Positions 15,606 to 55,364 of a stretch of 64,000 nucleotides of DNA are shown here, piece by piece; within the stretch, counting starts at the first letter, position 1; each line of letters opens with the position of its first letter. The notes under the pieces are model-generated. The model saw nothing but the letters and a program-made list of their open reading frames with translations. It did not search any database and was not told where the DNA came from. Origin of the DNA: an uncultured Rivularia sp. GTDB lineage: Bacteria; Cyanobacteriota; Cyanobacteriia; Cyanobacteriales; Nostocaceae. Position numbers and translations under genes: made by a program. The DNA lies in the NCBI GenBank assembly GCA_963665115.1, contig OY762007.1, positions 3,200,001-3,264,000 of the forward strand. The letters run 5' to 3'.

Positions 15606-15679
<74 letters not shown>

Positions 15680-15822
15680 ATAAGTTATGAGTTCTTACGA
15701 ACCGAACCTATAATTGTTTGAAAGCCTTTCAAATACCTAATCTACGTTACGACCTGGGATATACCAACTCGATCATCTAATCACAAATTGCTTTGGATGT
15801 ATGAGTGGTTAGGTCTCCCTGA

Positions 15823-17307
<1,485 letters not shown>

Positions 17308-17521
17308 TGGATAAGTTGAATACTTAGCAAATAGTCACATCCGTAACCACCTAAGCATTCTTCGTCCTTGACTGACTTTTTTTAAACCTTAGTCTTGGTT
17401 AATTACTTTACTAACGCAGACCTTTTATGGTATGCTGGCTTTCAAACAAATATATAGTTTTCTTGGTTCGGAACCCTTGAGGAGTCGGCGTTTTGCGCTT
17501 CTCTCTCTCAGGCACTTATAC

Positions 17522-31583: not shown

Positions 31584-32180
31584 GTGGCAAATAATAAAAT
31601 TTTAGTTATTGATGACACTACAGTAGTCAGGGTAAAAGTACGGGAAATGTTACCTCCGGGTAATTTTCAAGTACTAGAAGCAAAAGACGGCTTAGAAGGG
31701 CTTAAATTAATCAAGAAAGAAAGATTTAGTTTGATTATGCTAGATTTTCTGTTACCAAAGATGAGTGGCTGGGAAGTTTATCAGGAAATTCAGGCACAGC
31801 CAGATTTAAGAAAAACTCCTTTAGTTGTAATGTCAGGACGTAAAGAGGAAGTTACTGAAAAAATTTCCGAGCCGTTTGAGCATTTTGAATTTCTTAACAA
31901 GCCTTTTGACCAAAAACAGCTTATTAGCTCAATTAAAGCAGCGATGGCGAAGGCTAAACAACCTCGAACCCAACCTGTTGCTGTAGCAGCTGCTCATACA
32001 AACGGAAGCAACGGCACTAATGGCACTAATGGCAATGGAACCATGACTGCAGAATTTCCTAGTTCTGCGGCAGAAGTAGATGCACTCAATCAAAAAATGG
32101 CGAAAATGCAGTCAGAGATTGATGGTTTGAAAAAACAGCTAACACAGGTTGTTGCCTACATCAAACAAAAGATAAAGTAG
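31584..32180 (+). CDS. Response regulator (receiver domain plus C-terminal coiled coil)
   Basis: ILVIDD, LIMLDFLLPKMSG, KPF. Confidence 0.92.
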   Translation: MANNKILVIDDTTVVRVKVREMLPPGNFQVLEAKDGLEGLKLIKKERFSLIMLDFLLPKMSGWEVYQEIQAQPDLRKTPLVVMSGRKEEVTEKISEPFEHFEFLNKPFDQKQLISSIKAAMAKAKQPRTQPVAVAAAHTNGSNGTNGTNGNGTMTAEFPSSAAEVDALNQKMAKMQSEIDGLKKQLTQVVAYIKQKIK

Positions 32181-32221
32181 CTTTCTTCGTCAATTTAAAA
32201 TCTAAGCTCAAATTCTTACTA

Positions 32222-32246
32222 AAGCCTGTATAAACGGGCTTTTTTT
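32222..32246 (+). terminator. Intrinsic terminator
   Basis: AAGCCTGT-ATAA-ACGGGCTT followed by a T-run. Confidence 0.75.
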
Positions 32247-32320
32247 ATTTGCTCGAAATTTATAGTTTCAGCTTAGCTATACGAAGAGCGTGATGCCAGA
32301 GGGATATCTTACCTTGTCAC

Positions 32321-32685
32321 TACTAGCCAACCACGATAATTCTGCGGAGTTCCGGGAGTGCGAGCCGGAAAGCTCGCTAGTTGTCACGTGGGAGCGTCTC
32401 GCTCCCACTACATTTTGATTACCCCGCAAAACTAATGTGGTGGAATACTACTAGTCCTTTTCATTTGTTTTAATGGGTTGTAGAGACGTAGCAGTGCTAC
32501 GTCTCCCGACGTTAGGTCGAAAACGTACCCCTCAGAATTTATGCAAAGGACTACTACTACCCAACCACATTAATTTTGCGGTGTTAATAATTGTTCGTAG
32601 TTGCGCTTCAGCGCCTCTGGATACCGGAATATGAGGCGCTGAAGCGCAACTACGTACCCCTCAGAATTAATGTGGTGGAATACTA
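32321..32685. repeat. Three abutting MITE-like modules, each carrying a REP-like palindrome
   Basis: Imperfect terminal IRs (CCACATTAATT/AATTAATGTGG; TAGTCCTTT/AAAGGACTA); internal GTAG-type hairpins. Confidence 0.75.
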
Positions 32686-32837
32686 CGTACTAAGAATATC
32701 AATTTGAGTAATACTTAGGCATTTTCACTTATGCAATATACAGAATTTTTAAATTCTTTAACAGCGAATATATTTACTTATTCGTAATACTGAATATCAT
32801 TGGTAATTTTTATGAGCGTTTTGATACAGTTGGCTGC

Positions 32838-35800
32838 TTGATGGGAACAATAAAAACAACACGTGCTAGTGAATTGGGAATAGTCAAAATGGTTTTATCA
32901 TCATCTAAGTTATGTATGATTTCTGGGTATCGGATCATTGAGCAAATTCACATAAACAACCAAACTGTTATTTATAGAGGAGTCAGAGAAAAAGATCGTA
33001 AACCAGTAGTCATTAAACTGATGCGAAACGAATATCCTAATCCTCAAGAAATCGCTCAGTTTCGCAACCAGTACTCGATCGGGAAAAATCTAAATACACC
33101 CAGTATTGTCAAATCTTATAGCTTTGAAAATTACAATAAAAGCTATGCCCTTATAATGGAAGACTTTGGGGGAATTGCGTTAAGCAACGAAATAGAACGC
33201 TGGACTTTTGATGGAATACGCCAAAGTCCTGATTTTATCTATTATTTTCTCGATATTTCTATCAAAATAGTATCTGCTATTGATGAGTTACATCGTCATC
33301 AGATAATTCATAAAGATATTAAACCGGATAATATTTTAATTAACTCCAACACTAAGGAAATAAAAATAACAGATTTTAGTATTTCCACAATGTTATCTAG
33401 AGAAGTTCAATTCCTCAGCAATCCTGACGTTTTAGAAGGGACGCTTGCTTATATTTCCCCCGAACAAACTGGAAGGATGAATAGGGGTATTGACTATCGT
33501 AGCGATTATTATTCTCTAGGCATAACTTTGTTTGAGTTGCTAACCGGAGAATTACCTTTCAAAAATGACAACCCATTAGAGTTGATTTACTGTCATATAT
33601 CTCAACAGCCACCAGTTAACAAAATTATTAACTCTAATATCCCTTCGATAATATCAGACATAATTCGTAAATTGATGGAAAAAAATACCGAAGATCGCTA
33701 TCAAAGTGCTTTCGGAATAAAATATGACTTAGAATTATGCTTGCACCATCTACAAAAAAATAAACAGATAGAGCCTTTTGAGTTAGCAACCAAAGATATC
33801 TCAGATCGTTTTTCAATACCTGAAAAACTTTATGGTAGAGAAGTAGAGATACAAGAATTAATTGCTGCTTTTGATAGAGTTATAAATCCTCCCAAACACC
33901 ACATTGAAAAAGAAAAAGAAGTACGGAAAGGTGTAGAAGTAGTTTTTGTAAAAGGTTATTCCGGAATGGGAAAAACCGCAGTTATAGATGAAATCCACAA
34001 ACCCGTTATTAAAGAAAAAGGTTATTTCATCAAAGGGAAATTCAGCCAATTTAAACGAGATATTCCCTTTTCAGCATGGGTAGAAGCCTTAAGCAATTTA
34101 ATAGAGCAACTGCTGAGTGAAAGCGATACACAAATTGAGCAATGGAAAAGCAATATTCTCTCTAGTTTAGGTGACCAAGCTCAAGTAATAGTTGATTTAA
34201 TTCCACAGTTAGAACTAATCATTGGAGTACAACCTGAAGCAGCAGAATTATCTGGTATTGCGGCTCAGAATAGGTTACAGTTCTTATTTCATAAATTCAT
34301 CAAAATTTTCGCAATTAGAAAGCATCCCTTAGTTATATTTTTAGATGATTTGCAATGGGCAGATGCGGCTTCTCTAAATTTTGTTAAATTATTGGTGAGT
34401 GAAAATACTACAGTAAATAATCTAGGTAAATTGTCTAAAAAGTCAGGTATTCAGATGCCTGACTTTAATCAAGCTCACACTAATGATGATGATAATGCTC
34501 TATTGTTCATTGGCTCTTATAGAGATAACGAAGTTGATGTTACACACTCGCTTAATTTAACTATAAAAGAAATTCAACAAGAAAATGTAACTATTAGTTA
34601 TATAAAACTCGAACCTTTACATCAAAGTGATTTAGGTTTCTTGATTGCTGATACTTTTAAGTGCGAAGTAGATAGTATTGTTTTATTAACTCAAGTAGTA
34701 TTTGCTAAAACTAAAGGCAATCCATTCTTCATTCATCAATTTATTAAGGCTTTATATAAAGAGAAAGCGATCAAATTTAATTATGAAAGTGGTCGTTGGC
34801 AATGCGATGTTGCAGATGTAAAAAAATTAGCCCTTACAGATGATGTCGTAGAATTCATGGCGCTTCAAATAAAAAGACTACCAAGCTATAATCAAAAATT
34901 ACTAAAAGTCGCCGCTTGTATTGGCAGTAAATTTGATTTAAAAACTCTTGCTAAAATGAATGGTAAATCGACTGAAGATACGACAACAGAATTATGGGAA
35001 TCCGTATTGCAAGGGTTAGTGTTACCTGTAGTTAAAGACTACGTTTCATCAAATTCCGATCGTGAAATAACAGCATTAATAGTTGATAGTGATGATAAGA
35101 AAGAATTAGCTTTAAATCGTTCTAGAACTAGTCATTTTACATTTATACACGACCGGGTTCAACAAGCCGCTTATTCCTTGATTGCTGAGTCCGACAAACA
35201 GAAGATTCATTTAGAACTAGGAAAACAACTGTTAGAAAAGACTTCTGCCGATTCTTGGAAAGATGATATTTTTGAGACTGTTAATCAGTTCAACAAGGCT
35301 TTAGAATTAGTTACCGTTCAGCAAGAACGTTACGAATTAGCGAAAATGAACGTGCTTGCAGGACAAAAAGCTATCTCATCAACAGCTTATCAAGCAGCAT
35401 TAAAATATTTGAATACAGGAAAAGAACTGCTTATTTCTGATAGCTGGAAGACAGAATATGAATTGAGTCTGGGTTTATATGAAGCATTAGCAGAAGTTAC
35501 ATATTTAACAGGCGATTTTCAGGCTTCTGAAAAATATGTAGAAATAGTATTAGCGCAAGCTAATACGCTATTGGAAAAAATTAAAGTTTATGAAATTAGA
35601 ATTCAAGCTTATGGAGCGCAAGGAAAAGCAATAGAAGCGGTTAATACAGCACTTAATGTTCTCGAACAGTTAGGCATAGAATTTCCTGAGAATCCTACTC
35701 AATCTGATGTTGAACAAGCTATGGCACAAACAGCATTAAATCTTGCTGGCAGAGAAATAGAGGAGTTAGCCGATTTACCAGAAATGACGGAAGCAGAACC

Positions 35801-38570
35801 CTTAGCAGCAATGCGTATTCTCTCGAGTGCAATAACGCTTGCTTATCAAAGCTTCCCAGAACTAATGCCGCTAATTTGCAATAAACAAATTAGCTTATCT
35901 CTCAGACATGGGAATGCTCCCTTATCAGCCCTAGCATATATTACCTATGGATTAATTATGTGCGGAATAGTTGGAGATGTCGAAACTGGGTATAAATTTG
36001 GCAACCTAGCTGAAAACTTAGTAAATAAATTTCAGAACAAGGAAATATCGATCAAGGTGGCAGCGACATACAATCAATTAATAAAACCTTGGAAAGAGCA
36101 TATTACGAATACATTCCAACCTTTAGAAAATGTTTATTGTACTGGTATAGAAGTAGGAGATTTGGAATTCACGGCTCATGCTCTGAATGCTTTCTCTTAT
36201 CATGCATATTTTCTAGGCAAAGAACTAGAAGTACTGCAAGCAAATATTTTTAGTTACAGTGTTACTATTGAGCGAATCAAGCACGATAGAATTATTTACT
36301 GGAATGAAATCTATCGGCAAACTATCTTAAATTTGTATGAATGCGTTGAAGATCCATGCACTTTAAATGGTGAGGCATATAAAGAAGAAAAAAATATACC
36401 GCTTCATGTGGCAGCTAAAGATGGAGTTGCACTTTTTTGCTTATACATATGCAAGCTACAACTATGTTATCTGTTTGAAGAATATCTTGAAGCTTTTGAA
36501 AATGGAATCAAAGCAGAATATTATTTATATGGTGGAATTGCAAAATTCATTACTCCTCAGTTCTATTTCTACGACTCATTAACGCACTTGGCATTATACC
36601 CTGAAGCTTCTGAATCCGAGCAAAAGGAATTTATCGAAAAAGTAACGGCTAATCAAGAAAAAATGCAACATTGGGCAAATCATGCTCCGATGAATTTTCT
36701 GCATAAATTTCATTTAGTAGAAGCCGAAAAGAATAGCGTTTTAGGAAAAAAAATGGAAGCAATGGAACTATTTGATTTAGCCATTGCTGGAGCAAAAGAA
36801 AACGAATATCTTCATGAAGAAGCACTTGCGAACGAACTTGCAGCAAAATTCTATCTAAAATGGGGTAGGCAAAAAATAGCAAAAGCTTATCTTGATGATG
36901 CTTACTATGGCTACATTCGTTGGGGTGCAAAAGCTAAAGTTAAGGATTTGCAAAAACGCTATCCTCAATTACTTAATCATATTGTTTCACAGGAAGAAAC
37001 TAATAATACCGATAAAAATACTTCTTTAAGCGATATTAAACAACTATCTGAGATTAATAATCATAAAACCATATCAGGTACCAATAGCACCATCTCAACA
37101 TATTTAGATTTGGAATCAGTAATTCAAGCTTCTCAAGCACTTTCCGAACAAATACAGTTAGACGATTTACTTTCTACTTTGATGAAAGTGATTATGGAAA
37201 ATGCGGGAGCCTCTAAATCTGCTTTAATTTTAAGTAAAAATGCTAATTTAGAGTTGGAGCTAACTGCAATTAGTTGCAACGATAATATATCTTCTATTTC
37301 TACAGAATTACTTTTTACTCCTTTAGAGTCCAATAACAACGTTCCACTAAGTTTAATTAATTATGTCAAACGTACAAAGGAAAGTATCGTAATAGACGAT
37401 GTTGACACCCAAGATAACTTAGCTGCTGATAGCTACATTATCGCTCGAAAACCTAAAAGCATATTATGTATCCCAATTATTAACCAAGGAAAATTCTTCG
37501 GAATTCTTTACCTTGAAAATAAGCTAACAATAGGAGTCTTTACTCACAATCGTATAAACCTGATAAATTTAATTACTAATCAAGCTGCAATTTCTCTTAA
37601 GAATGCAATCCTTTACGATAATTTGATTGAAGCAAAAGAAAATTTAGAAAATCACAATCAAAGTTTAGAGGAAAAAGTTGTACAAAGAACGCAAGAGATT
37701 AATGACAAAAATAAAAACCTGGAAAAGGCTTTAAAGCAGCTACAAAGTACACAAGCTCAATTAGTTCAAACTGAAAAAATGTCAAGCTTAGGACAAATGA
37801 TAGCAGGAATTGCCCATGAAATTAATAACCCTGTAAATTTTATTCATGGCAATATTAATCATGCAGCTCAATATGTCCAATATTTAGTAGACTTAATCGT
37901 TATTTATCAGCAAGAATATACCAATCCCAACTCGATTGTTGTAAAGAAAGCTTCTGAAATTGATATAGATTTTGTACTTGAAGACTTACCCAAACTTCTG
38001 AATTCCATACAGGTAGGAACTTCACGTATTCGTAACATTATTTTAGGGTTACGTAACTTCTCTCGTTTGGATGAAGCCGAAATGAAATCTGTAGATGTTC
38101 ATGAAGGAATAGAAAACACCTTGATGATTTTGCAACACCGATTTAAAGCAAAAGATAGCCATCCCGAAATTCAAGTCATCAAAGAATATGGACAGCTATC
38201 TGAAATTACTTGTTACCCAAGTCAGCTTAACCAGGTGTTTATGAATATTTTGAGTAATGCAATTGATGTATTTAAAGAATCACAAATAAAACCTCAAAAA
38301 TTTGAAAATCCTACAATTTGTATTTCGACACAACTAGTAAATTCAAATACAGTAAGAATTCAGATTGCAGACAATGGTTCCGGAATTGAACAAAAAGTGC
38401 AGCAGAAAATATTTGATCCGTTTTTTACTACTAAACCAGTCGGAAGTGGTACGGGATTGGGTTTATCAATTAGCTATCAGATTATTGTTGAAAAGCATAA
38501 AGGTCAATTGATTTGTAATTCTAAAGTAGGAGAGGGGACTGAGTTTGTGATTGAAATACCGATGTCATAA
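32838..38570 (+). CDS. Hybrid Ser/Thr kinase - AAA ATPase - GAF - histidine kinase
   Basis: [29 protein letters not shown] Walker [12 protein letters not shown] domain, AHEINNP and GTGLGL. Confidence 0.95.
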
Positions 38571-38626
38571 GATTAAGAAGATTCTACACGAATCAATATT
38601 TATATCTTTGTTCAGCAACCTCAAAT

Positions 38627-39361
38627 TCATTTATGTTTCATCGCAGTATAAAATGTAGGAACTTTAGGATAATTTCCATCTGGAAGTAAGAAAGCAATAT
38701 TAAGACAATCTTCTCCTGATTTCAATATTTCAAAATCGGGAAATAAACTTACTATTTCCTCTAATGTAACTGTACCCGGTCTCAAACCATGTTCGAGTAC
38801 AATTGTCATTTCGTCAGGCAGTTTCCCATATTTTTCTCTTATAGAATTAAAGTAGTTTACTGCATTTATACCTAGCTCAATAAGATAAATGAGACCGCTA
38901 TTTCCTAGCAATATCTGTAGAGATTCAGCGAATCTAGAACGCTTTTCTACCGGAATATGATGAAAACCCGTTCTCATATAGATATTAGCATCGCCGATTT
39001 CAGAATGAAGAGATTCTGCTTGCTCTGGCTTTAAAGCATCGAGTATTCGATATTCTATGTTTGAAGCATGATGCTTAGCTTTAGCCATTTCTAAAGCGCT
39101 TTTAGAAACATCAATTCCAATTACCTTTGTAAAATAGTCTGCAAGAAAACGAGTTTGGGTACCATTGCCACAAGCAAAGTCAATTAAAGGCAATTGAGAA
39201 TCCATCGCATCTTTGAAACGAGGTAGATCCCTAGCTGCTGCAACTTCGGGGCTGCAATCCCACAAGATAGGGTTAGACAACTTAGAAGTTTTATTCCAAT
39301 AAGATTCCCACGCGGAAGAAATATCTATATTTGGTTTGTCTTCCAAAATTATTTTTTCCAT
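38627..39361 (-). CDS. Class I SAM-dependent methyltransferase
   Basis: LIDFACGNG motif I, IGIDVS motif II, YMRTGFHH. Confidence 0.9.
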   Translation of the reverse strand: MEKIILEDKPNIDISSAWESYWNKTSKLSNPILWDCSPEVAAARDLPRFKDAMDSQLPLIDFACGNGTQTRFLADYFTKVIGIDVSKSALEMAKAKHHASNIEYRILDALKPEQAESLHSEIGDANIYMRTGFHHIPVEKRSRFAESLQILLGNSGLIYLIELGINAVNYFNSIREKYGKLPDEMTIVLEHGLRPGTVTLEEIVSLFPDFEILKSGEDCLNIAFLLPDGNYPKVPTFYTAMKHK

Positions 39362-39582
39362 CAGTCAATTAAATCTCCACTAGAGGTAACAAAAGTTGGT
39401 GTACAATCAAACTAAAAGTCATTATTTAATGAACTCATCTATTAACTATTAGTTTGTTACAAGTAAGTTCGCTCAAATAAACCTAACTATGTAACTAAAC
39501 TTAAAATACTCGAAACCACTGCGATTGCTTAATTTCGCTCTAATTCGTTCGCAATGACGTAGAGATAAATTTCTCCACTCAC

Positions 39583-41181
39583 CTAGTTAATATTAGAGAG
39601 TGATGCTTCTAATCGAATTGTTTCACTCTCACTTGATAATTGATGACTTAAGAATTTTAGTAATGGATTAGTATGAACATCTTCTAGCCATTCACTATCT
39701 ATATCTTCAATAACATGATGTTCTGCGATCAACTTACTACCACAGAAGTGACGAATTATAGGATGTATACCCGAACTTAATGAAGCTCGCTCGACATCAT
39801 CTTTATGAATCCTCTCAACTGCAAATGGATCTGGACTTGCAAATATGATATCAAGTCCAAATTCTAAAGTTACAGTATAGTAATGTTTTTGCTGACCTAA
39901 ATTGCTATCATGTACATAATCTGTAGGAATATCTCTGTAGTATCGTGCTTTATTGTCATCTTTAGATACTACAATAAGGTCACACAAATATCCAGTTTGC
40001 TGCCATAAACCAGAGCTTTTATTTACTCGCTGAATAATAGTCTGCATTAAAATTTCAGCAGTACAGTCAATTCTCTGGCAAGGTAGCTGTTGATTATAAT
40101 ATTTATAATCTAATATTTGATGTAATGCCCGAATGTTATAGCGGAATCCGTGAATAAAGCCGGATTGTTTCTTTTTATAATCCCGCATATGAGTCAATAT
40201 TCCAACAAAATATAAGTCTTTAATGTTGGTTGATTCCCATTCACTTGTTTGATTTGGGTAGCGATTATTAATAGTTAACTGAGGCTGACATGATTCATCA
40301 AAGATAGAGTTATCGAAACGGAAGCCAGTACATACTATTACACGATCGTAAATTAAATCCTCAACTTCTCCATCTGCGTGTCCGTAGGTAAAGGTAACAA
40401 TGTATTTACCTTCTTTAAACTCAATTTTTTCTACATTAGCGTCCAAAACTACATTTTGCGATTTCAGCTGGTAAGTATCAAGAAAGTTGTTGTTGATGCC
40501 TCTCAAATGCCCAACATATTTAGTCTTCCATGCCATCTCTACAGGAGTGGGACTAACTATATGAATAAGTGAAGCTGTTGCAACTAAATTATCAGCAGTT
40601 TCAAAGCCAGAGTTTCCTTTACCAATAATCAATACCCGTTGATTCGCAAAGTCTTCTGGATCTACTGATACATCTGTATAATTTTCCGCGAACTCTATTC
40701 CAGGAATGTCTGGGACATATGGTTTACTAAAACCAGTAGCTACAATTAAACGAGCCGCTGAGAAAACATTACCATTGCTATCTATCACCATAAATTTATT
40801 ATTTTTGGCGATTCTAACAACTTGGCAATTATATTTGATATTGAGGTTAAAATGATTGGCGAAATCACCGAAATATCTAACCAAATCATCTGTATGGGGA
40901 AAATATTCTCTGCTGTAATTCTTAAAAAGCATTTCTTCACTATCGCTTAATAAAGAATTCCAATCCCAACGAAGATTTATCTCAGAATCTTCAAACCCTG
41001 TGTATACTTTATTAATTGAAATTAACTTTTTATGTCTAGGAAACTTATTAAAAAAGTTTCCCGCTTTATTTGAACCTTCAAGAATAAGATAATCACGATT
41101 AGCTTTTTCGAGATAATAACCAAGCTGTAATCCAGCAGGGCCTGCACCAATAATCAAGTATTCAAATTCTGGTAAAATCAT
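39583..41181 (-). CDS. FAD/NAD(P)H-dependent oxidoreductase, FOXRED2-like
   Basis: GAGPAG and GKGNSG Rossmann motifs; ATG motif; FPRHKKLISINK, WDWNSLLS and GFIHGFRY signatures. Confidence 0.85.
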   Translation of the reverse strand: MILPEFEYLIIGAGPAGLQLGYYLEKANRDYLILEGSNKAGNFFNKFPRHKKLISINKVYTGFEDSEINLRWDWNSLLSDSEEMLFKNYSREYFPHTDDLVRYFGDFANHFNLNIKYNCQVVRIAKNNKFMVIDSNGNVFSAARLIVATGFSKPYVPDIPGIEFAENYTDVSVDPEDFANQRVLIIGKGNSGFETADNLVATASLIHIVSPTPVEMAWKTKYVGHLRGINNNFLDTYQLKSQNVVLDANVEKIEFKEGKYIVTFTYGHADGEVEDLIYDRVIVCTGFRFDNSIFDESCQPQLTINNRYPNQTSEWESTNIKDLYFVGILTHMRDYKKKQSGFIHGFRYNIRALHQILDYKYYNQQLPCQRIDCTAEILMQTIIQRVNKSSGLWQQTGYLCDLIVVSKDDNKARYYRDIPTDYVHDSNLGQQKHYYTVTLEFGLDIIFASPDPFAVERIHKDDVERASLSSGIHPIIRHFCGSKLIAEHHVIEDIDSEWLEDVHTNPLLKFLSHQLSSESETIRLEASLSNIN

Positions 41182-41339
41182 AATATTCTAGTAACAGCCA
41201 AGAATTTATACAACAGAAAAGCGCTTTTTAGGACTATTTAAGCTTGTTTTTACAAATGTAAAATTAAAATACAGGAGAAAAACCTATATATTCAATTATT
41301 AAAATTATAAAAAAGAATGAAATAGTCCTGTGAAAGCAT

Positions 41340-42089
41340 TTAGACAATAGATAATGTTTTTTCAACAAGCTCAGATTCGATAAAAGGTTTATCCATATAG
41401 TGTTTATGAGCAAAAAGAAGCATCTCGTTTGTTGCGTTCATAAAGTCTGTAAATACTCTTTCTACCAAAATAAAAGCTTTTTCTTTTTGCAGTTCTGTAA
41501 GCTTTATTTCTTCAAGAAAATGCTCTATATCATCCATATCCGATTGAATATGACCTGTTTCGACAGCATAATGAGAGTGTGCAAAATAAGGATGATGTTG
41601 TTTTGTAATTTTCTTTAATTCCTCAGCCACTAATCCTGTCTCATACAAGGCGACATTTCCTGTCACTTCTATTGATTCAATAATAACCAGCTTCATTAAC
41701 AAATCATCTTCAAAACTACACATTCCGAATAGGTTATAAGCCATCAAACGGACATTTTGTGTTTCTTCTCCCCACACAAATCTTAAGGCATCTGTAAAAT
41801 TATATTGATTATCAAAGCCAAGTAACTTAAGGTCTTGTAAAAACCATTTCCAATGACGACCATCCTCATAAGTATGCTGGTTTATCATTTGTTGGATTTT
41901 GTTATTAGCTGGCTCTTTACGAAGAGTAAGACTATTAAAGTCTTTAAAACTCATGGCAAAAGGTGTAAAGCAAGGGGCCCAAGCTAGCCTTTGTCTTGGA
42001 TGTATGCTTTTATCTTGGAGGAACTTAATAAATGGTGATTGAGCAAACTCCTGTTTTTTTATTTGAATGTATTCCAAAACTTCTTTCAT
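41340..42089 (-). CDS. Heme-oxygenase-like diiron oxidase (HDO), AetD-like
   Basis: HTYEDGRHWKWFLQDL, IIESIE and SHYAVETGH motifs; AAGGAG RBS 8 nt before ATG 42089. Confidence 0.8.
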   Translation of the reverse strand: MKEVLEYIQIKKQEFAQSPFIKFLQDKSIHPRQRLAWAPCFTPFAMSFKDFNSLTLRKEPANNKIQQMINQHTYEDGRHWKWFLQDLKLLGFDNQYNFTDALRFVWGEETQNVRLMAYNLFGMCSFEDDLLMKLVIIESIEVTGNVALYETGLVAEELKKITKQHHPYFAHSHYAVETGHIQSDMDDIEHFLEEIKLTELQKEKAFILVERVFTDFMNATNEMLLFAHKHYMDKPFIESELVEKTLSIV

Positions 42090-43187
42090 TTTCAATACTC
42101 CTTACATTAATTACCTAGCTGCAAAAAATCGGAATAAAACACCGGCATTTAAACTTTTCGTAATTCCTATTCGATGTTTTCTTATTAGCTTCTAATTTCA
42201 GTAGCTAGCTTTCTAAAACTATTATTGAATAATTTTTAAGTGTAAATATCCGTAAATACGTTTAACTATGTGTTTATTTTCAAAAAAAAATAACGGAGTA
42301 TTAATGCATCCAGAATTAAAAATTAAATACATAGTATATAGATAAATATCTAATATTATATTTTTCAAATTAGCGTATATTTAACGACTTATACCATGTC
42401 AGTAATCTGATGTAACCCTATCAAAACCGTAAAATAGTAGGCTTTATTACTTACTTGTATTGGCTAAAGATTTCAAATACTTAATAACTATAAAAATTAT
42501 CTAGCTATTTTTATTTACAGAACACTTAAGTATTATCCACTAAATGTCAACAAACCGTAATTTTATTTATTGGCTAAATATTTGCTTATTAATTAATTTT
42601 CAAAACTTGAAAAGTGGTTAAAATCTTTGATATACCTTTTAAATTAGACATCATATATAATTGAGAAAATAATGTACGCTTTTATACGTCAAGCTAATAA
42701 GCGTCAAATAGACATTTAATAACATCCAAATAGGTAGATGATTTTTTTAGGGAAATATAGTATACGCCTTAAGATTCAAAAATAGTAGTTTTTTATATAT
42801 CTTTTGATAGATGACTATTTAATTTTTAATGTCTTTCTATCACAGTCCGAAACAGTTACACTACAGAATCCATTTTCTTATCAGTAATCTAGAAACAAGC
42901 GCGAAAGAATATATCAAATTGAATTGATGTAGCTGCCTTTCATCCCGATATTTTGTCCGGTAGAATGCTAATAAGAAAGGTTTTACTTAGGTTCAAACTA
43001 ATAAAAACCAATTAGATATATTTGAGATTATCTACCTTGTATAAAAAAATAAAAATGGCTGTTCGCTTTAATTGGAACAGCCATTTACTATTAATGAAAA
43101 ATTATTCTTTTGACAACACTTAAGTATTGCTAACGAAAGATCGTTTTCAAGCTCCTTGTAATAAAGGAGCGAAAAAAGTAATTCCTT

Positions 43188-44741
43188 CTACGGCTGCTGA
43201 TTCATAGCTACATTAGCCCCAGGGGTAGAAACTATTGATTTCTGCAACATAGGGGTGTTAGCAACCGAATTATTTGCCAAGGTAAATAATGGGTTGGAAA
43301 GAATTCCTGCAATAGAGGTGGCAATTAAAGTAGTTACCAAGCCTATTTGTAATGGTCTTAATCCAGGTAAATTCCAATTGATTGGGGGATAATTCTTCAC
43401 TACATCGGACATTTCTTGAGGTTCTTTCACTACCATCATCTTGACGACGCGGATGTAATAGTAAATAGATACCACGCTAGTAACCAAACCCAATAAAACT
43501 AAGCCATAAAGACCTGCTTGCCAACCTGCCCAGAAAAGGTAGATTTTACCAAAGAACCCGGCTAAAGGAGGAATGCCCCCCAAGGAAAGCAAAGAAAAGC
43601 TTAAACCCAAAGTCAAAAGTGGGTCTTTCTGATATAAACCAGAGTACTCGGTAATTTGGTCGGTTCCCGTCCGTAGAGAGAACAGAATTACGCAGGTAAA
43701 ACCACAAAGGTTCATAAACAGGTAAACTAGCAAGTAAAATATCATGCTGGAATATCCTGCTTCTGTGCCAGCAATCAAGCCAATCATCACAAACCCAGCT
43801 TGAGCAATAGATGAATAAGCCAGCATCCGTTTCATGCTAGTTTGGGCAAGGGCAACCACGTTACCCAATACCATACTTAATACAGCTAAAGCGGTAAATA
43901 CGAATCTCCACTCATCAGCCACCAGAGGAAATACTGTTGTTAGCAAACGGATAGCTAAAGCAAAACCCGCAGCTTTGGAACCTACAGATAAAAACGCAAT
44001 TACCGGAGTTGGTGCGCCTTCATATACATCTGGTGTCCATTGGTGAAAAGGTGCGGCAGATATTTTAAAACCTATACCAGCAATTACAAACACTAAGGCA
44101 ACAACTACACCCAAGGATTGACCGAGGTTTGCAGTTTCGATGCCAGTGGCGATCGCGCTCAGTTCAGTTTGTCCACCAGACAATCCGTAAAGCAGGGAAA
44201 CACCATACAAAAAGACGGCCGTGCTAGAAGCTCCAATCAACAAATATTTGAGTGAGGCTTCGTTAGAACGAGGGTCGCGCTTGGTATAACCTGTCAATAA
44301 ATAAGAGGAAATACTAAGAGTTTCTAAGGAGATGAAAACCATCACCAACTCATTAGCACCCGATAGAAACATTCCTCCAAGGGTGGCAGTAAGCAAAATA
44401 GCGATAAATTCTGCTAAGGCGGTACCACTTTGTTCAACGTAGCGAATTGACATCAAAATAGTGATAACCGCACTTAGAGCAATAATACCGCGAAATACGA
44501 TACTAAGGTCATCGCCATTGAAGGCACCAATAAATGATATGGGATTAGGATTATCCCATTGAAGATACAAAGCGACCAAAGAAGCAAGTAAACCTGCAAT
44601 TGCTAGATACCCAATCCAGCGTGCGGACGAACGTCCTAAAATCAAGTCTACGATCAAAACCCCTAAAAAGGTGATAATTACAATCCCCTCTGGTACTATC
44701 GTTCCAGCATTTAACTGGGATGCAAGGTTAACAAAATCCAT
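43188..44741 (-). CDS. ndhB: NAD(P)H-quinone oxidoreductase subunit 2 (NdhB)
   Basis: [46 protein letters not shown]. Confidence 0.98.
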
Positions 44742-45185
44742 GAGATATACAGGTTTCGACTATTAGACTTTCACACTAACTCTGTTAATTCTATTGTTTT
44801 TTACTGTTATTTCACCAAAATCATTCAAGATGAAAGTTAAATTCTACCTTTCAATTTGTATAGCTAAACATTTGTACTATATTTACTGCTATTAAAAAGT
44901 ACCTCTTGCATTAATGTCACAAACCGGGTTTTTTTCTAAGAAAGCATGAGCAGGACACTTGGTTTCTTTGGAGTTGTTGAGAGTGGTGCAAGATTTCAAT
45001 TAAAAAGCACCTCGTAAAAGGTGCTTTCGTAATTATTAAATCTAACTTTTATGTTTTCTTCAGTACTTAGTATGCTTTAATTTATCTAAAAATCGCTGAA
45101 ATAGTTGCTATACAAGGATTGTTATTTTCTACAATCGAGATTCGGGAACTAATAAATTTTTTCCTCTATTCCCTATTCCCTCTTC

Positions 45186-45287
45186 TAAGCTGCTGCACAT
45201 CTAATTTGTATTATCGTAGCGGGCAAGATGCCCGCACTACAAAACTTTCAAAAATTCCAATATACAAATTAAAAGATTTTTAGCTTA
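45186..45287. repeat. TAAGCT...AGCTTA dispersed repeat with REP-like core
   Basis: Core AGCGGGCAAGATGCCCGCACTAC; AATTTGTAT/ATACAAATT inner IR. Confidence 0.7.
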
Positions 45288-45341
45288 CTACTATTTTATT
45301 GGCTTTCTAAACTACGGAAGAACAACTTTAATCAAAAGTTT

Positions 45342-45966
45342 TTAAGCTTCGTGGCGAACGCGAGGAGTACGTGCCCCAGCTGCTGCTCCAACCATTGATG
45401 CGATTAAACCCAGTAAAGAACCGAATACAAACCACCATAAACCTTTGGAAGTCGCTTCTGCAATTTGAGTAGCTTGTTGTGGATTAATGTTGGGTACATT
45501 TTGCGGAATATCAGCACTTTGTATCTGATTAATTACTTCCCCAGCGTTATAAGCCGCAACACCGAAAGCTCCAGATACACCACTTGCTAGCAACCAAGAA
45601 CTAACAGCTAAAGTTGTAGCCCAAAGAATTGCACCATTTAGCAAAGCTGTACTGCGATTCATGGGGCCCGCAAGCACGAGTTGTAATCCAACCAGCAACA
45701 AACAAGGAGATTAACAAAGCTATTGTTGACCAAATGCCTACGTTACCTGCAATATTGGGTGCAATACTTCCAGGTGTACTAGAGTCGGAAACAAACGTTG
45801 CTCCAATAGCACCGAACAAAGCGCTTAAAATTAATTGAGTAGCTAAACCAACCAACAAGCCAGAGATAATCGGACCCCAACGAACGCGATCGTGATAATC
45901 TACTACTCTACTTGTTACAACAGGTTCATTAATTACTTCTTCACCGACTCTATTTACATAAGACAT
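45342..45966 (-). CDS. Conserved membrane protein, +1 frameshift at about 45665
   Basis: RVRWGPIISG motif; removing one base restores RACGPMNRSTALLNG and joins the two ORFs. Confidence 0.8.
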
Positions 45967-46449
45967 TATTTAGATATCTCCTGATTTTTTAACTAAAAAC
46001 TTTTTGAGCAATACTACTGCTTATAGTTAATAATTAAACGATCAATCTTAGCAATGCAAATCTATCCAACGGTATAGTTATTAGCTCTATCTTTAGCTAT
46101 AAGATACTGTTTTTAATCTTCGACAAAAGTTAACTTTTATTAAGGATATAATTTGATAACTTGTTGATGTTTTTTTTATAAAGATAAACCTAAAAAGCAA
46201 AAAATAGTAGGAATAGGTTTCGCGTCAATGCTATACTGTAAATAGCTTTTAAATTAAAAAATATTTTTAATTGTATCTTGAAAAAAGTTATTAGCTGTAC
46301 CAGTAGATGAATTCAATATAGTCGAAAATGACATCCCGGAGACAGAATAATTAGAAAACATTTTTTTAAAATTACTGTCTCCAGAGTGCCTATAACTTAC
46401 AGAAAATATTGACAATAATTACTTGTAAGCTATGTTTATGTGCTTGATA

Positions 46450-46779
46450 TTATTCACGTACTCTGACGGCAGTACCTACAGCAGTAATTAGTAATAAAAC
46501 ACCCGATTGATCGACATTGATTGTACCAGTATCAATTTCAATCCCGACAACAGCATTTGCTCCCAAACGCTGCGCTCGTTTTTCTAATTCTGAAAGTGCT
46601 TTTTGTTGACCTTCTTCAAATAAACGCTCGTAGCTACCTGTCCGTCCACCGATAATATCTCTTAAACCGGCGAAAAAATCTCGCATGAAATTACTGCCAT
46701 AAACAACTTCCGCCGTTACAACCCCTAAATAGGATTCAACGATAGCTCCTTGAATGACATCAGTAGTCGTAATAATCAT
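46450..46779 (-). CDS. YbjQ/UPF0145 family protein
   Basis: RDIIGGR..YE, GANAVVG, GTAV. Confidence 0.92.
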   Translation of the reverse strand: MIITTTDVIQGAIVESYLGVVTAEVVYGSNFMRDFFAGLRDIIGGRTGSYERLFEEGQQKALSELEKRAQRLGANAVVGIEIDTGTINVDQSGVLLLITAVGTAVRVRE

Positions 46780-47676
46780 AGGTTTGCCTTCATAACTGGG
46801 TTATAATTCCAATTGTGAATGATTCTGCAATCAAATAAATCTCCCTCCGCAAGAAGATGCTTAGAAAGCAATAATTATAATCGTGCAAAAGTAATTTAAG
46901 ATTTTGTTTAGATAGTGAATAGGCAACAGGAAACGGTAATATAAGATTTAAGATAGCTACCTAACTTAATCGGGTGCTTTTGTTTAGCTTGTTAAATATT
47001 TTTTTCAAAAGTACAGCTATTACAGTTCTCTTATATGTTTTATAGCCGTTTTACTAGGTAAAGGGGTTAACACAATAATTAAAGGTTTGTGTAATATCAG
47101 CGTATTACAAATCTATTGCAAACGCAGATATATCTCAATCGTAATCTATTATCTACTAAATCAGTCCTGCAACAAACCATTGCTAAGTAGTCAGGTAAAA
47201 TTATTTATATATTTTAATATATTTTATTTACTGCTCAGTGATGTAATCGTGCCCTATTCCCTACCTAAACGAAATGTTTAATTAATTTTGCACAAATGCT
47301 TATCTAGGAATAAATAAAAAATTAGCGTAAGCCTAAAATTATGTTCCGTGGCTTAGTTGTAGGCAACAATACATTTAAATAATACTGAATAAAAAACAAC
47401 GATATAATACATTAGATATACATACTCTTTAATGAACTAGCTTTTAAACAGCGAAATTACCTAATATAGAGGTTTACTGCTCGAAATAGTAAACAAACAT
47501 TTCATAACCGAGTAATTACTTAGAAAAAATGCTTTTGTATCGCAGTAACGATAAATTAATTGTAAAATTCAAAAAAAGTAAGCAAATAGAGTTTTCAAAA
47601 TTCAATATTTTTGTTTTAATGGACAAGCATAAATTTAAGTTGTGGTAAAGTTGCGAAAACTTTCAGGTATTCAACT

Positions 47677-50728: not shown

Positions 50729-52423
50729 TTATTTTTCCGAGTTTTTATAAGCATTTTTTCTCGCCAGCCAATTGCTAGCAATTGGCATTCGCCAACCAGT
50801 ACCGAAAGCGCGATCTGTAATTTTGATTCCTGGGGGTGCCTGTCGCCGCTTAAATTCTGCACGAGTCACCATTTGAATAATTCGGTTGACAATTGATACA
50901 TCATGCCCTGCTGCAATTATTTGCTCTGCTGATTGATAATCATTAATTAAACGTTGCAAAATATCATCTAAAACTTCGTAATCTGGTAATGAATCTCGAT
51001 CGAGTTGATCGGGTTTAAGCTCTGCACTCGGTGCTTTAGTTAAAACATTTTGCGGAATTACTTCGCCGTTTCTGTTTAACCAATGACAGATCGAGTAAAC
51101 GCGGGTTTTAGGAACATCGGCAATCACGGCTAAACCACCATTCATATCGCCGTATAAAGTGCAGTAACCAACTGCCATCTCCGACTTGTTACCAGTTGAT
51201 AGCAGAAGATAACCAAATTTATTTGAAATTGCCATTAATAAGTTACCGCGAATTCGAGATTGGATGTTCTCTTCTGCCAATCCAAATTCAGTATCTGCAA
51301 ATAATTCTGCAAAGGTACCGTCATAAGACTTCATTAAATCTCCTATCGGCAGCTTTTGCGTGGTTATGCCAAGATTTTTCGCCAAGTCATCGGCATCCTG
51401 GATCGAAGATTCTGAACTGTAAGGAGAAGGCATCAACACGCCGAGTACATTTTCTTTTCCTAACGCTGCTGTGGCGATCGCCGCAACAATCGATGAATCA
51501 ATACCGCCACTTAAACCTAAAACTATTTTGGAAAAACGACATTTTTGAACGTAATCTTTTACTCCCAATACCAAAGCCTGCCAAATTTCTTCGTCTTCGC
51601 ATTTATAATCGGGTGCAATAGAGCCTACATTCAAATCAAGATTTTGTTTATCAAATTCTAGTTTAAGTAAATCAGTATCAAAACCACAAGCACGAGAAAT
51701 TACTTCACCGCGTTTATTCAAAGCAAAACTTCTACCATCAAAAATTAAATCGTCATTACCACCTACCTGATTTACATAGATAATTGGTGTTTTAAAACGT
51801 ATTGCAGTATGTTTCAACATAGCTTCGCGGAAGTGCTGTTTACCAAATGTATAAGGTGAAGCTGATAAATTAACAACTATATCTACGTTTAATTGAGATA
51901 ATTCGGCAATCGGATTTATGGAATAACTGCGCTTGCCAAAAAATTCTTCATCATTCCATAAATCTTCGCAAATCGTTACGCCGATTTTAACGTTATTTAA
52001 AGTAAAATAATTTACTTTATTACCAGCTTCAAAATATCGATGTTCGTCAAACACATCATAAGTTGGTAGCAATCGCTTGTGAAATATCTGTTTTACTTTT
52101 CCTTCAGCAAGTAAAGCAATGCTGTTATAAAGAGATTTACCTCCAGCAATATCTGCCTTCGTATTTTCTTCAGCGGTTCCGACTAATACCGCTAAATTAG
52201 CTGGTAAATCCTTGGCTAATTGTTGCAAAGCTATATTCATAGCCTGCATAAAATCAGGTTTTAATAATAAATCTCGTGGAGGATAGCCGCATAAAGAAAG
52301 TTCAGGAGTTAATAATAAATCGGCTTTATCTGCTACTGCTTTGTTGGCAGCCTCGATAATTTTTTGAATATTTCCGGGTATATCGCCAATAATTGGGTTG
52401 ATTTGAGCTATTGTAATTTTCAT
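50729..52423 (-). CDS. nadE: Glutamine-dependent NAD+ synthetase
   Basis: Nitrilase domain (PELSLCGY, ICEDLW) plus SGGIDS, TGNKSE and PSAEL. Confidence 0.97.
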   Translation of the reverse strand: MKITIAQINPIIGDIPGNIQKIIEAANKAVADKADLLLTPELSLCGYPPRDLLLKPDFMQAMNIALQQLAKDLPANLAVLVGTAEENTKADIAGGKSLYNSIALLAEGKVKQIFHKRLLPTYDVFDEHRYFEAGNKVNYFTLNNVKIGVTICEDLWNDEEFFGKRSYSINPIAELSQLNVDIVVNLSASPYTFGKQHFREAMLKHTAIRFKTPIIYVNQVGGNDDLIFDGRSFALNKRGEVISRACGFDTDLLKLEFDKQNLDLNVGSIAPDYKCEDEEIWQALVLGVKDYVQKCRFSKIVLGLSGGIDSSIVAAIATAALGKENVLGVLMPSPYSSESSIQDADDLAKNLGITTQKLPIGDLMKSYDGTFAELFADTEFGLAEENIQSRIRGNLLMAISNKFGYLLLSTGNKSEMAVGYCTLYGDMNGGLAVIADVPKTRVYSICHWLNRNGEVIPQNVLTKAPSAELKPDQLDRDSLPDYEVLDDILQRLINDYQSAEQIIAAGHDVSIVNRIIQMVTRAEFKRRQAPPGIKITDRAFGTGWRMPIASNWLARKNAYKNSEK

Positions 52424-52535
52424 TTATTAATTATTAATTGGGGAATTGGGAATAGGGAATTGGGAGTTAATATTATTTACTGATATTTCCTTTCTTTATT
52501 CTCTGTTTTGCTTTTATTAAATCATCTATATCAAA

Positions 52536-53282
52536 TTAAATAAAAACTAAAGGCTTATCTTTAAAAGGTGCGAAAGCTTCTGCATCAAACTGATACAAAC
52601 TAGCAGGACGACCGGCACCTCGCGACACTTTTATTCCGGTATCGGATAAAAAACCTAGTTTTAATAAGCGAGCGCGAAAATTAGAATAGTCAGAAAAATT
52701 TTCTCCTAAAACAGTAGTATAAAACTGATATAAATCGTTCAAAGTAAACTGTTCTGGTAATACATCAAAAGCGACAGGAGAATACTCTAATTTATTTCGC
52801 AAACGCTTGTGTCCGTATGAAATTATTTCATTATGGTCAAATGCTAATGATGGTATTTCTTTTACCGGGTACCAAGCTACATCGGCGACGCTATCGGTAA
52901 TTAATTGTGCTTCTTCAAATCGTACTAAAGCAAAATAACTTACCGATAAATAACGCACTCCATAACTATCGCTTGCTTCCCTTGGGTCGCGTTGGGGGCC
53001 GCCAAAAGTATATAATTGCTCTAAATAAAGGTTTTCAACACAAATTTTCTCAGCCATAATTCTATAGGCTGCATCTTCTAAAGACTCTCCTTCACGAACT
53101 AAAGTCCCTGGAAGACCCCAAGTTTTTGCAAATGGCTCTGAAGGGCGCATTATTAATAGAACTAACAGCCTATTTTGAGCAATATCAACTGAAAAAATCG
53201 CATTATCAACACCTACTTTGAAATCAGCTAAGGGCTGTTGATTTAAGGTTGGTAAAGTTTTGTTTTGGTTGAGTCTTGGCAT
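52536..53282 (-). CDS. nrtR: Nudix-related transcriptional regulator
   Basis: Nudix-like LPGTLV..GESLEDAA, LAFDH, wHTH with NFRARL and GRPASLY; lies in the NAD operon. Confidence 0.92.
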   Translation of the reverse strand: MPRLNQNKTLPTLNQQPLADFKVGVDNAIFSVDIAQNRLLVLLIMRPSEPFAKTWGLPGTLVREGESLEDAAYRIMAEKICVENLYLEQLYTFGGPQRDPREASDSYGVRYLSVSYFALVRFEEAQLITDSVADVAWYPVKEIPSLAFDHNEIISYGHKRLRNKLEYSPVAFDVLPEQFTLNDLYQFYTTVLGENFSDYSNFRARLLKLGFLSDTGIKVSRGAGRPASLYQFDAEAFAPFKDKPLVFI

Positions 53283-53842
53283 TCGTATAAATGCTTTTGA
53301 TTAATATAAGCAGCTACAGAGGGTGTCAAAGCTTGAGTATCGCCATGTTCGCGATACGCTGTTGAAGAAACATCTAATCCTGTAAGGTTCGCTACAGTAA
53401 TTTCTCCTCCTAATTCACGTACATGAAGCAAACTACTTTCATCTATGGTATATCCCGGTCTTGGTATCACCAATACTTCTGCCTCTTGCAACAAAGATTC
53501 AATTCTATACCAACGCTGGAATTGTTCGAGTAAATCAGAACCAATTATCACGACAAATTCACTATCTTTACCCCAACGTTGTTTGGCATTTTCTACTGTT
53601 GTCACGGTTCTCAAATGGCTTAACTCCTGCTCCAAAGCAATATTTTGCCTTAGTGGGTTAATATCAGCAATCAATAACCGTAACATTTCAACGCGATTTT
53701 CTAAAGATGTTTGATGAGATTTAAAAGGATTATTTGCTGCCCAAACTGTTACTAAATCGTAATGATGAGATAACCAAACTAAAACAGCTTGATGTCCTGC
53801 TGTTGGCGGATCTGCACTTGTACCAAATAATGCAATTTTCAT
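53243..53842 (-). CDS. nadD: Nicotinate-nucleotide adenylyltransferase
   Basis: FGTSADPPTAGH, IIGSD, VSSTAYR. Confidence 0.93.
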   Translation of the reverse strand: MKIALFGTSADPPTAGHQAVLVWLSHHYDLVTVWAANNPFKSHQTSLENRVEMLRLLIADINPLRQNIALEQELSHLRTVTTVENAKQRWGKDSEFVVIIGSDLLEQFQRWYRIESLLQEAEVLVIPRPGYTIDESSLLHVRELGGEITVANLTGLDVSSTAYREHGDTQALTPSVAAYINQKHLYECQDSTKTKLYQP

Positions 53843-53890
53843 TATTAGTTATTAGTTGTTAGTTGTTAGTTGTTAGTTATTAGATGTTAG
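53843..53890. repeat. Heptamer STRR tandem repeat (TTAGTTG/TTAGTTA)
   Basis: Direct inspection; similar heptamer arrays at about 26000, 52440, 56940 and 58900. Confidence 0.85.
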
Positions 53891-53948
53891 ATTTTAAGAG
53901 CAATAATTAAAACTAAATTCAATAAACGCATTTTCTACTGTTAACTGC

Positions 53949-55331: not shown

Positions 55332-55364
55332 ACAGAAAAGCACCTTGGCAACACCTATTTGTAT

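Follow-up and report, generated by a model that had tools for sequence, protein, structure and literature searches.

Which chemistry is encoded by three co-oriented genes for a diiron oxidase of the heme-oxygenase-like kind (HDO), a flavoenzyme and a methyltransferase (MT) in an uncultured Rivularia sp., and do these genes stand for a pathway of their own? The trio lies in a stretch of 64,000 nucleotides (contig OY762007.1 of assembly GCA_963665115.1, positions 3,200,001 to 3,264,000; hereafter the window), in which a preliminary description had presented it as a minimal cluster for the oxidation of an amino acid, followed by a flavin redox step and a methylation. The analysis presented here identifies the trio as a real, conserved variant of a recently described kind of locus. 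As a tentative reading, which is the one we favour, the locus would serve to make, from free L-tryptophan (Trp), a small indole that is both oxidised and methylated, and cyanide and CO2 would likely be released.

The framework for this reading comes from AetD and SktA, the only assayed members of this HDO family, which differ strikingly in the products that they form although their substrates are nearly the same. Acting alone, SktA of Nostoc punctiforme NIES-2108 converts Trp or 5-bromo-Trp to (bromo)skatole, cyanide and bicarbonate, and the skt cluster additionally encodes the tryptophan halogenase SktB and the flavin monooxygenase (FMO) SktC, an insoluble protein that was proposed to epoxidise skatole (PMC11869266). 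The AetD homologues mined by Adak et al. were mostly from Nostocales, those other than SktA were stated to be of unknown function, and AetD stood alone in the similarity network, nitrile formation being taken as rare (PMC11869266).

The first protein of the trio had been described as following AetD closely along its length, and this is borne out by a phmmer search against the Protein Data Bank (PDB), in which AetD was matched with E 1.9e-48 and 168.6 bits over residues 1-234 of 249; its identity to SktA of N. punctiforme NIES-2108 is 49% over 234 aa. Among the stretches that had been quoted as shared with AetD, HTYEDGRHWKWFLQDLKLLGFD, ALRFVW and SHYAVETGH are recovered in the HMMER alignment, whereas the one given as VIExxE reads IIESIE here. 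The assignment of His, Glu and Asp metal-binding positions is likewise upheld, as all six AetD ligands are aligned: D76, H79, E141, H173, E177 and H180 of the window HDO correspond to AetD D76, H79, E140, H172, E176 and H179, and 84-85 of the 85 rows in the family alignment conserve these six positions. In the active-site passages of the AetD structural work, H79, H172 and E176 bind Fe1 and D76, E140, E176 and H179 bind Fe2 (PMC10654658); the corresponding passages on the substrate list F44, F48, I146, Y167 and S214 as contacts, among which F44, F48 and Y167 clamp Trp and bind its carboxylate (PMC10654658, PMC11611611). The window HDO retains these clamping residues as F44, F48 and Y168. The open reading frame (ORF) extends over 41340-42095 (251 aa from a TTG two codons upstream of the ATG), the ATG at 42089 being the M1 that is kept across the family.

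Neither Pfam nor NCBIfam holds a family model for the HDO. An AlphaFold2 (AF2) model built from 51 relatives reached a pLDDT of 90 and a pTM of 0.86, and Foldseek placed AetD chains first (TM 0.83-0.93, rmsd 1.6-2.2 Å, 35-37% identity), the top matches being 8tww and 8ji7 (TM 0.86-0.93, rmsd 1.6-1.7 Å, 37% identity), followed by CADD, BesC, PolF, UndA and TenA. The comparison with AetD, BesC and UndA that had been proposed for the model thus returns a heme-oxygenase-like fold with aligned ligands, with AetD as the best match and BesC and UndA lower in the list. In sequence, fold, ligands and substrate contacts alike the protein belongs to the HDO family, and by analogy an Fe(II)/O2-dependent conversion of Trp is predicted for it.

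Inspection of the substrate pocket and of the phylogeny places the window HDO more finely. Its residue 216 is F, as in SktA, in place of the Br-contacting S214 of AetD; the relevant passage of PMC13108848 likewise gives F for the equivalent position of SktA and describes the Br contact of AetD S214. At positions 44/48/140/143/147/168/216 the window HDO reads FFITAYF, a signature more frequent in the family than any other (39 of 85 rows), and halogenase-linked HDOs carry M or F at position 147 in 17 of 19 rows. In a quick IQ-TREE phylogeny with SH-aLRT support only and without AetD (the placement of which was judged from sequence and structure matches and from the published network), the window HDO falls within a clade of 17 rows (support 99%), the other members of which are mostly of a GntR/PAS-linked type; the SktA clade (13 rows, support 98) is remote from this clade, and the flavoenzyme-linked HDOs are scattered over several separate clades. 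The same genome encodes two more HDO paralogues, one (G000:C1:5715401-5716135, 44% identity) that follows hemC and glgA-like genes and is itself followed by a small Ser/Thr kinase and another giant kinase, the other (G000:C1:611476-612159, 41%) standing alone, as well as a 36-aa HDO fragment (C1:580392-580499). Outside cyanobacteria, relatives were seen on a Streptomyces clavuligerus megaplasmid and a Cupriavidus replicon (35-36% identity) and, at 23% identity, on 36 Piscirickettsia salmonis plasmids.

The trio recurs in other genome neighbourhoods, a point on which the preliminary description had made its case depend (loci and genomes are designated below by L and G labels, respectively). Two metagenome contigs show the window's exact order, with identities for HDO, flavoenzyme, MT and adjoining kinase of 84, 85, 81 and 78% in L087 and 84, 73, 77 and 71% in L088. 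The order HDO-flavoenzyme-MT-kinase is also found in L021 (Lusitaniella; MT 63% identity), and in L031 and L082 (MT 56-57%) the genes are reordered as flavoenzyme-HDO-MT. All three trio genes are under purifying selection, with ratios of nonsynonymous to synonymous divergence (dN/dS) of 0.11-0.19. Relative to L087 the synonymous divergence is uniform over the trio (dS 0.63-0.71); relative to L088 the flavoenzyme is an outlier with a dS of 1.36.

The link between the HDO and the flavoenzyme extends beyond the complete trio. Where a sampled genome contains both, the two genes lie side by side (6 of 6 genomes); in six further sampled genomes the flavoenzyme matches are more divergent, and an HDO match at E <= 1e-20 is lacking. 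Further, 8 among the 120 listed relatives of the flavoenzyme are single proteins of 849-913 aa, for instance in Acaryochloris sp. CCMEE 5410 and IP29b_bin.148, in which residues 1 to ~235 form an intact HDO (39-48% identity to that of the window, with the ligand motifs present) followed, in 8 of 8 cases, by the flavoenzyme part (66-71% identity). On account of this union in one polypeptide, the fusions constitute strong sequence evidence that the HDO and the flavoenzyme act together. The fusion proteins (P0185, P0193, P0198, P0199, P0207, P0221, P0229 and P0233) have an extra tail of ~60-140 aa past the flavoenzyme part, which in P0185 gives a borderline match to DUF4388 (25 bits, at the cut-off). 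In L065 and L074, from two uncultured cyanobacterial genomes, tandem duplicated HDO genes (~7100-8720) precede one flavoenzyme gene, and G027 and G059 show the same arrangement.

In addition to conservation, there is a clear record of exchange. The window is collinear over 31969-46868 with the locus of Calothrix sp. CCY 0018 (L024) at 83-93% nucleotide identity, with three exceptions: the HDO gene, of which 463 nt align at 69%, the intergenic region upstream of it, which shows no alignment, and the MT gene, which is absent and has 72 bp in its place. At the protein level the flavoenzymes of the two loci are 83% identical (dS 0.67), while the HDOs share only 49% (dS 1.70). It is clear that cassette parts were exchanged between lineages. 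Around the HDO and MT genes, a repeat search aimed at remnants of mobile-element insertion returned just short, chance-like repeats.

The surroundings of related HDO genes were surveyed in contigs representing one genome per species, which yielded 326 HDO relatives. The best 80 of these 326 were examined and, together with the window locus and the two additional HDO paralogues of its genome, make up a census of 83 loci, in which ORFs were called naively and clustered and the cluster representatives were named with Pfam. In 54 of the 83 loci, a giant kinase is found no more than 8 kb from the HDO. A flavoenzyme of the window type, matching Pyr_redox_3, is present in 22, in nearly every case as the next gene behind the HDO, and the kinase is present too in 18 of these 22. 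SktB-type halogenases and SktC-type FMOs each occur in 15 loci, an O-methyltransferase in 5, a second type of halogenase in 4, and a short-chain dehydrogenase/reductase (SDR) or a hydrolase in a few. The published skt locus (L044) is itself closed by a giant kinase. Thirteen of the 83 rows lie beside divergent GntR and PAS genes and are without the kinase. The HDOs nearest to that of the window (L001-L014 and L034; 61-71% identity, HDO at ~8001-8750) stand by such GntR/PAS genes, in some cases along with a receiver-AraC regulator; kinase and flavoenzyme are missing there, and these HDOs represent a second, regulator-linked context of the family.

The giant kinase combines Ser/Thr kinase, AAA_16, GAF and His-kinase ATPase domains as identified with Pfam. 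With eight full-length paralogues in the 8.69-Mb genome, a rough estimate puts the chance adjacency of an HDO and such a kinase at ~2%. On the basis of this low value, the pairing in the census and the kinase at the skt locus, the window locus is one version of a widespread arrangement that consists of an HDO, a variable enzyme cassette and a kinase; the earlier notion of a minimal cluster is hence replaced by that of one cassette version, to which the MT is a rare, optional addition. The kinase is 78.5% identical to that of L024 overall, with most other 100-aa blocks at about 80-89%, as opposed to 44% in aa 1101-1200 and 64% in aa 1201-1300. Against L087 and L088, which have the same HDO type and the MT, these two blocks show 59-64% and 77-78% identity, respectively. 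Outside the segment the L088 kinase is more distant from that of the window than the L024 kinase, and the ten best matches to the middle segment do not include L024. These four comparisons give a hint that the segment aa 1101-1300 might vary with the type of cassette. This fast-evolving segment corresponds to window positions 36138-36737.

As for the second protein, its designation as a FOXRED2-like flavoenzyme is consistent with the appearance of eukaryotic FOXRED2 among its nearest named look-alike clusters (score 0.98, rank 11), which is a feature-based lead. The more specific match is to Pfam Pyr_redox_3 (E 3.7e-56, profile positions 1-305 of 305), and the two dinucleotide motifs, GAGPAG at residue 12 and GKGNSG at residue 187, combine with this domain to give the architecture of group B flavoprotein monooxygenases. 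NCBIfam has no model that matches at the cut-off. The C-terminal domain of ~170 aa is conserved, has no family in Pfam, and in a search of the ESM Atlas with the C-terminal 178 aa returned unnamed clusters only. By sequence the solved relatives are distant and include 4usq/4a9w-type FMOs, 3d1c, phenylacetone monooxygenase (PAMO), YpdA, thioredoxin reductase (TrxR) and ferredoxin-NADP reductase (FNR). The AF2 model, built from 17 close relatives, is too poor (pLDDT 58.5) to place active-site residues, such as a lysine equivalent to AetF K258, and a structure search with its residues 2-317 only gave a tie between oxygenases and reductases at Z 12-14, with the Stenotrophomonas FMO 4a9w at Z 14.0 and YpdA at Z 13.9, along with N-hydroxylases and Baeyer-Villiger monooxygenases (BVMOs). 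The pattern FxGxxxHxxx[YWF] has a single match at residue 325, a non-canonical place, and this pattern missed the SktC relatives too. AetF, a group B flavoprotein monooxygenase that, according to the relevant passages of PMC10306068, has two dinucleotide domains and acts ahead of AetD, does not appear among the listed matches of the sequence (35 phmmer matches), profile and structure searches, an absence that carries no information on whether the two are related. The best 120 relatives of the flavoenzyme are 66-89% identical to it, and the HDOs that accompany such flavoenzymes are 44-55% identical to the window HDO. A complex prediction for the flavoenzyme with the HDO gave a score of 0.00, which speaks neither for nor against binding.

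The third protein, named earlier as a SAM methyltransferase, matches Pfam Methyltransf_25 (E 8.2e-11) and TPMT (PF05724; 27.9 bits against a cut-off of 26), and in the PDB it matches 3ggd over its full length (E 4.9e-95) and, more distantly, CyaF (9k2f, E 1.3e-22); from these profile and sequence matches it is classified as a TPMT-like class I S-adenosylmethionine (SAM) methyltransferase. A literature search on CyaF gave nothing relevant, and a function was found for neither 3ggd nor CyaF. Within 301 sampled genomes of the order, the MT is found in 6, the flavoenzyme in 12 and the HDO in 53. One MT relative (L086) is a 62%-identical C-terminal fragment with no HDO or flavoenzyme within 1.5 kb, and relatives at 36-45% identity do not lie beside HDO genes. 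The MT is an optional and rare add-on to the HDO/kinase locus. Between the flavoenzyme and kinase genes of L073 there is a 47-aa remnant (L073:2386-2526) that is 77% identical to the window MT, which suggests that the MT has been lost there.

The absence of the other aet genes from the window, as asserted before, is supported by a Pfam scan of 22 window ORFs, among which there is no Trp_halogenase or P450. More specifically, families corresponding to the AetA/AetF halogenases, the AetB P450 or the AetE tryptophanase do not occur among the scanned ORFs in window positions 19606-55343, and a tblastn search of the whole 8.69-Mb genome with SktB (L044) and the second halogenase type (L072) gave no hit at E <= 1e-5. 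Given intact Trp-binding residues and a genome search that turned up no halogenase, free L-Trp, which SktA accepts too, would be the likeliest substrate of the HDO. An SktC-type FMO gene (G000:C1:3438486-3439949; 52.5% identity to SktC) occurs ~197 kb from the trio and adjoins no HDO.

Under the favoured reading, the HDO would bind L-Trp via the amino acid moiety on Fe1, activate O2 and cleave the side chain in the manner of SktA, yielding 3-methylindole (skatole), HCN and CO2; nitrile formation of the AetD type would be less likely. The nitrile, oxime or alkene chemistry envisaged at first is therefore to be qualified, in that skatole and cyanide are at least as likely, given that the homologue SktA makes skatole, cyanide and CO2. 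The flavoenzyme, with NAD(P)H and O2, would then add oxygen to the indole product, for instance at C2/C3 to form an oxindole-type compound, and the MT would cap an N, O or S atom of the oxygenated product. The adjoining kinase might control the module or respond to its product. An oxygenase role for the flavoenzyme is favoured by the full-length Pyr_redox_3 match, by the FMO, N-hydroxylase and BVMO relatives and by the presence of SktC in the skt cluster; the HDO, flavoenzyme and MT steps are all ones that we infer.

Several observations weigh against this sequence of steps. The window HDO lies outside the SktA clade, among HDOs that are mostly linked to GntR/PAS genes and lack kinase and flavoenzyme, and its pocket has I140 and A147 where SktA has T and M, on account of which its product may differ. 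The role of SktC is itself only proposed, the solved relatives of the flavoenzyme are evenly divided between monooxygenases and disulfide or ferredoxin reductases (YpdA at Z 13.9, TrxR, FNR), and its AF2 model, at pLDDT 58.5, is poor. Additionally, the flavoenzyme (66-89%) is far tighter than the HDOs paired with it (44-55%), a pattern that fits the role of a constant partner as well as that of a tailoring enzyme. Finally, the gaps within the trio are 158 and 221 nt long, and co-transcription is an assumption. A constant partner could be a dedicated NAD(P)H reductase of the HDO diiron site, so that the pair would be self-sufficient and only the MT would modify the product; this is the main alternative, which we regard as possible, if on the unlikely side. 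Conversion of Trp to skatole, HCN and CO2 is a two-electron oxidation. Consequently two further electrons per O2 have to come from outside, and in the SktA assays ascorbate served as the reductant in vitro (PMC11869266). This need for outside electrons would be answered by such a reductase, as would the fusions with the HDO in front (8 among the 120 listed relatives, as in Acaryochloris), the adjacency in 6 of 6 genomes with both genes, the pairing of the flavoenzyme with HDOs of several separate clades, and its closeness to the L024 counterpart at a locus where the HDO has diverged. The YpdA disulfide reductase, thioredoxin reductases and TrxR-like ferredoxin-NADP reductases are among its solved relatives, and FOXRED2/ERFAD is regarded as a reductase; a 2026 review of HDOs contains no occurrence of 'reductant', 'ferredoxin' or 'fusion'. 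Against a reductase speak the HDO loci that do without the flavoenzyme (13 GntR/PAS rows and 17 kinase-only or other rows), the 170-aa C-terminal domain, which would be superfluous for a simple reductase, and the lack in the Pfam scan of the Fe-S or FNR module usual in known diiron reductases; moreover, consecutive enzymes of a pathway also occur as fusions.

The divergence of the HDO itself raises the alternative that its reaction with Trp, or with some other aromatic amino acid, is of the AetD type or of one not yet described, giving indole-3-carbonitrile, an aldehyde or another rearrangement product on which the flavoenzyme and MT would act. SktA (49%) is roughly as distant from the window HDO as many family members are, and the window HDO belongs to a different, well-supported clade, and differs from both SktA and AetD at residues 140 and 147; further, PDB entry titles list AetD crystals with Tyr and Phe (8zvg, 8zvh), and the passages of PMC13108848 on this point indicate that AetD and SktA form different products with the same ligands. 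However, F216 is shared with SktA, the sole assayed member of the large cyanobacterial group, SktA, makes skatole, and AetD is a singleton in the network, with nitrile formation read as rare (PMC11869266), so that we consider this alternative improbable. We rate as more improbable still that the flavoenzyme acts first on Trp, as an AetF-like single-component halogenase or an N-hydroxylase, with the HDO using the modified amino acid: the two dinucleotide domains of AetF and its action ahead of AetD offer a precedent (in the passages of PMC10306068 cited above), and lysine and ornithine N-hydroxylases are among the structure matches at Z 12-13.6 (with the poor model), but AetF is missing from the 35 phmmer matches and the HDO comes first in most loci and in 8/8 fusions. 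That the three genes are mere neighbours with unrelated functions would agree with the gap lengths and with the absence of the MT from the closest syntenic genome (L024), but is scarcely credible in view of the order kept in L087, L088 and L021, the uniform dS over the trio relative to L087 and the HDO-flavoenzyme fusions; moreover, the placeable MT relatives of at least 56% identity all lie beside an HDO or flavoenzyme gene, in contrast to those at 36-45%.

The layout of the locus (Table 1) agrees with its earlier outline as three co-oriented genes with gaps of about 160 and 220 bp behind an AT-rich region of 1.1 kb, the measured values being 158 nt between the HDO and flavoenzyme genes, 221 nt between the flavoenzyme and MT genes, and 1098 nt.

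Table 1. Positions in the window of the trio and the features adjoining it.
Feature	Position	Strand	Description
HDO gene	41340..42089	-	AetD/SktA-family diiron oxidase, 249 aa from ATG at 42089
Flavoenzyme gene	39583..41181	-	532 aa, Pyr_redox_3 (FOXRED2-like) FAD/NAD(P)H enzyme with ~170-aa C-terminal domain
MT gene	38627..39361	-	Class I SAM methyltransferase, TPMT-like, 244 aa
Sensor kinase gene	32838..38570	+	1910 aa, convergent with the trio; stop 56 nt from MT stop
Intergenic region, ndhB to HDO	42090..43187	.	1098 nt, AT-rich; presumed promoter region
ndhB	43188-44741		Upstream of the HDO intergenic region (Pfam)
Response-regulator receiver gene	31584..32180	+	Just upstream of the kinase; Pfam Response_reg E 1.5e-19

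The intergenic region has a GC content of 0.225-0.31 in 400-nt windows. Scans of positions 38000-45200 and 38400-43300 for Rfam families and for promoters and terminators gave no match reaching the threshold and no excess of promoter-like sites (23 against 23.5 expected). The receiver gene is possibly the partner of the kinase, its link to the trio being suggested by position, and a part at 31969-32268 falls in the block that is syntenic with the Calothrix sp. CCY 0018 locus. The other neighbours in positions 19606-55343 include, apart from ndhB and the kinase, response regulators and NAD-salvage genes. The latter form a run at 50729-55343 (an NAD synthase that carries a CN-hydrolase domain, a Nudix regulator of the NrtR type, a cytidylyltransferase-like protein and a nicotinate phosphoribosyltransferase) with no evident link to the trio. 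Two ordinary tandem rRNA operons (5S, 23S, two tRNAs, 16S) on the minus strand at 5593-10677 and 12226-17308 explain the repeated short ORFs.

These results bear on the HDO family as a whole. The commonest enzyme partner in the 83 loci is the FOXRED2-like flavoenzyme, with 22 loci, and not the halogenase and SktC pair, with 15, which makes the flavoenzyme a candidate for the in vivo electron supply of HDOs or else for a new indole-oxygenating enzyme, and the natural fusion offers a means to test its role. The trio with the MT points to an undescribed Trp-derived metabolite, possibly formed together with cyanide, in a genome where no halogenase was found. Further, the near-constant pairing with the giant kinase suggests that the small molecules may be tied to signalling, which, if true, would provide the first candidate ligand for a large family of orphan kinases. 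One could go on to speculate, at a rather low likelihood, that the flavoenzyme is the physiological HDO reductase, as fused in Acaryochloris, and that volatile indole and/or cyanide is a signal read by the giant kinase, the segment aa 1101-1300 of which would track the cassette, the whole being a swappable 'signal synthase plus sensor' system of filamentous cyanobacteria.

The statement that no characterised pathway has this gene combination still holds for the literature searches made here, which found no paper that deals with the trio combination, with fusions of an HDO to the flavoenzyme or with the link to the kinase, and a word search of the SktA paper's supplement gave 0 occurrences of methyltransferase, kinase, neighborhood and oxidoreductase. 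The SktA authors may have been aware of such a context, since their text speaks of 'various genomic contexts' (PMC11869266), the network figure not being part of this check. Among the characterised systems, UndA and BesC resemble the HDO in superfamily fold, in substrate-triggered two-electron oxidations that need outside electrons and in C-C cleavage, and differ from it in sequence (9-12% identity) and in their substrates, a fatty acid and chlorolysine. The MT aligns over its full length with 3ggd, a structural-genomics entry titled 'SAM-dependent methyltransferase', CyaF being more distant. The flavoenzyme shares two dinucleotide-binding domains with the type II FMO 4a9w and YpdA/Bdr (7a76), at Z 13.7-14.0 over ~250 residues of the poor model, but it is set apart from FMOs, TrxR-like reductases and FOXRED2 by identities of ~18-22%, the extra 170-aa C-terminal domain and the fusion to an HDO. 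AetD (8ji2, 8tww) is a full-length homologue of the window HDO with 37% identity, a seven-helix heme-oxygenase-like fold that superposes at TM 0.88-0.93, all six ligands and F44, F48 and Y167; the pocket of the window HDO differs by F216 for S214, I140 for M139, T143 for A142 and A147 for I146, and the halogenase, P450 and tryptophanase partners of the aet cluster are not among the ORFs scanned. The closest counterpart is sktABC. Unlike it, the window has no SktB halogenase, to judge from tblastn of its genome, and has an added MT, an HDO of another clade with I140/A147 in place of T/M, and a Pyr_redox_3 flavoenzyme that shares 23.5% identity over 136 aa with the Pfam FMO-like SktC. Like it, the window combines an HDO of the same family, with identical ligands and Trp contacts at 49% identity over 234 aa, with a flavoenzyme gene after the HDO and a giant kinase of the same type at the end of the locus, within a cyanobacterial family dominated by Nostocales.

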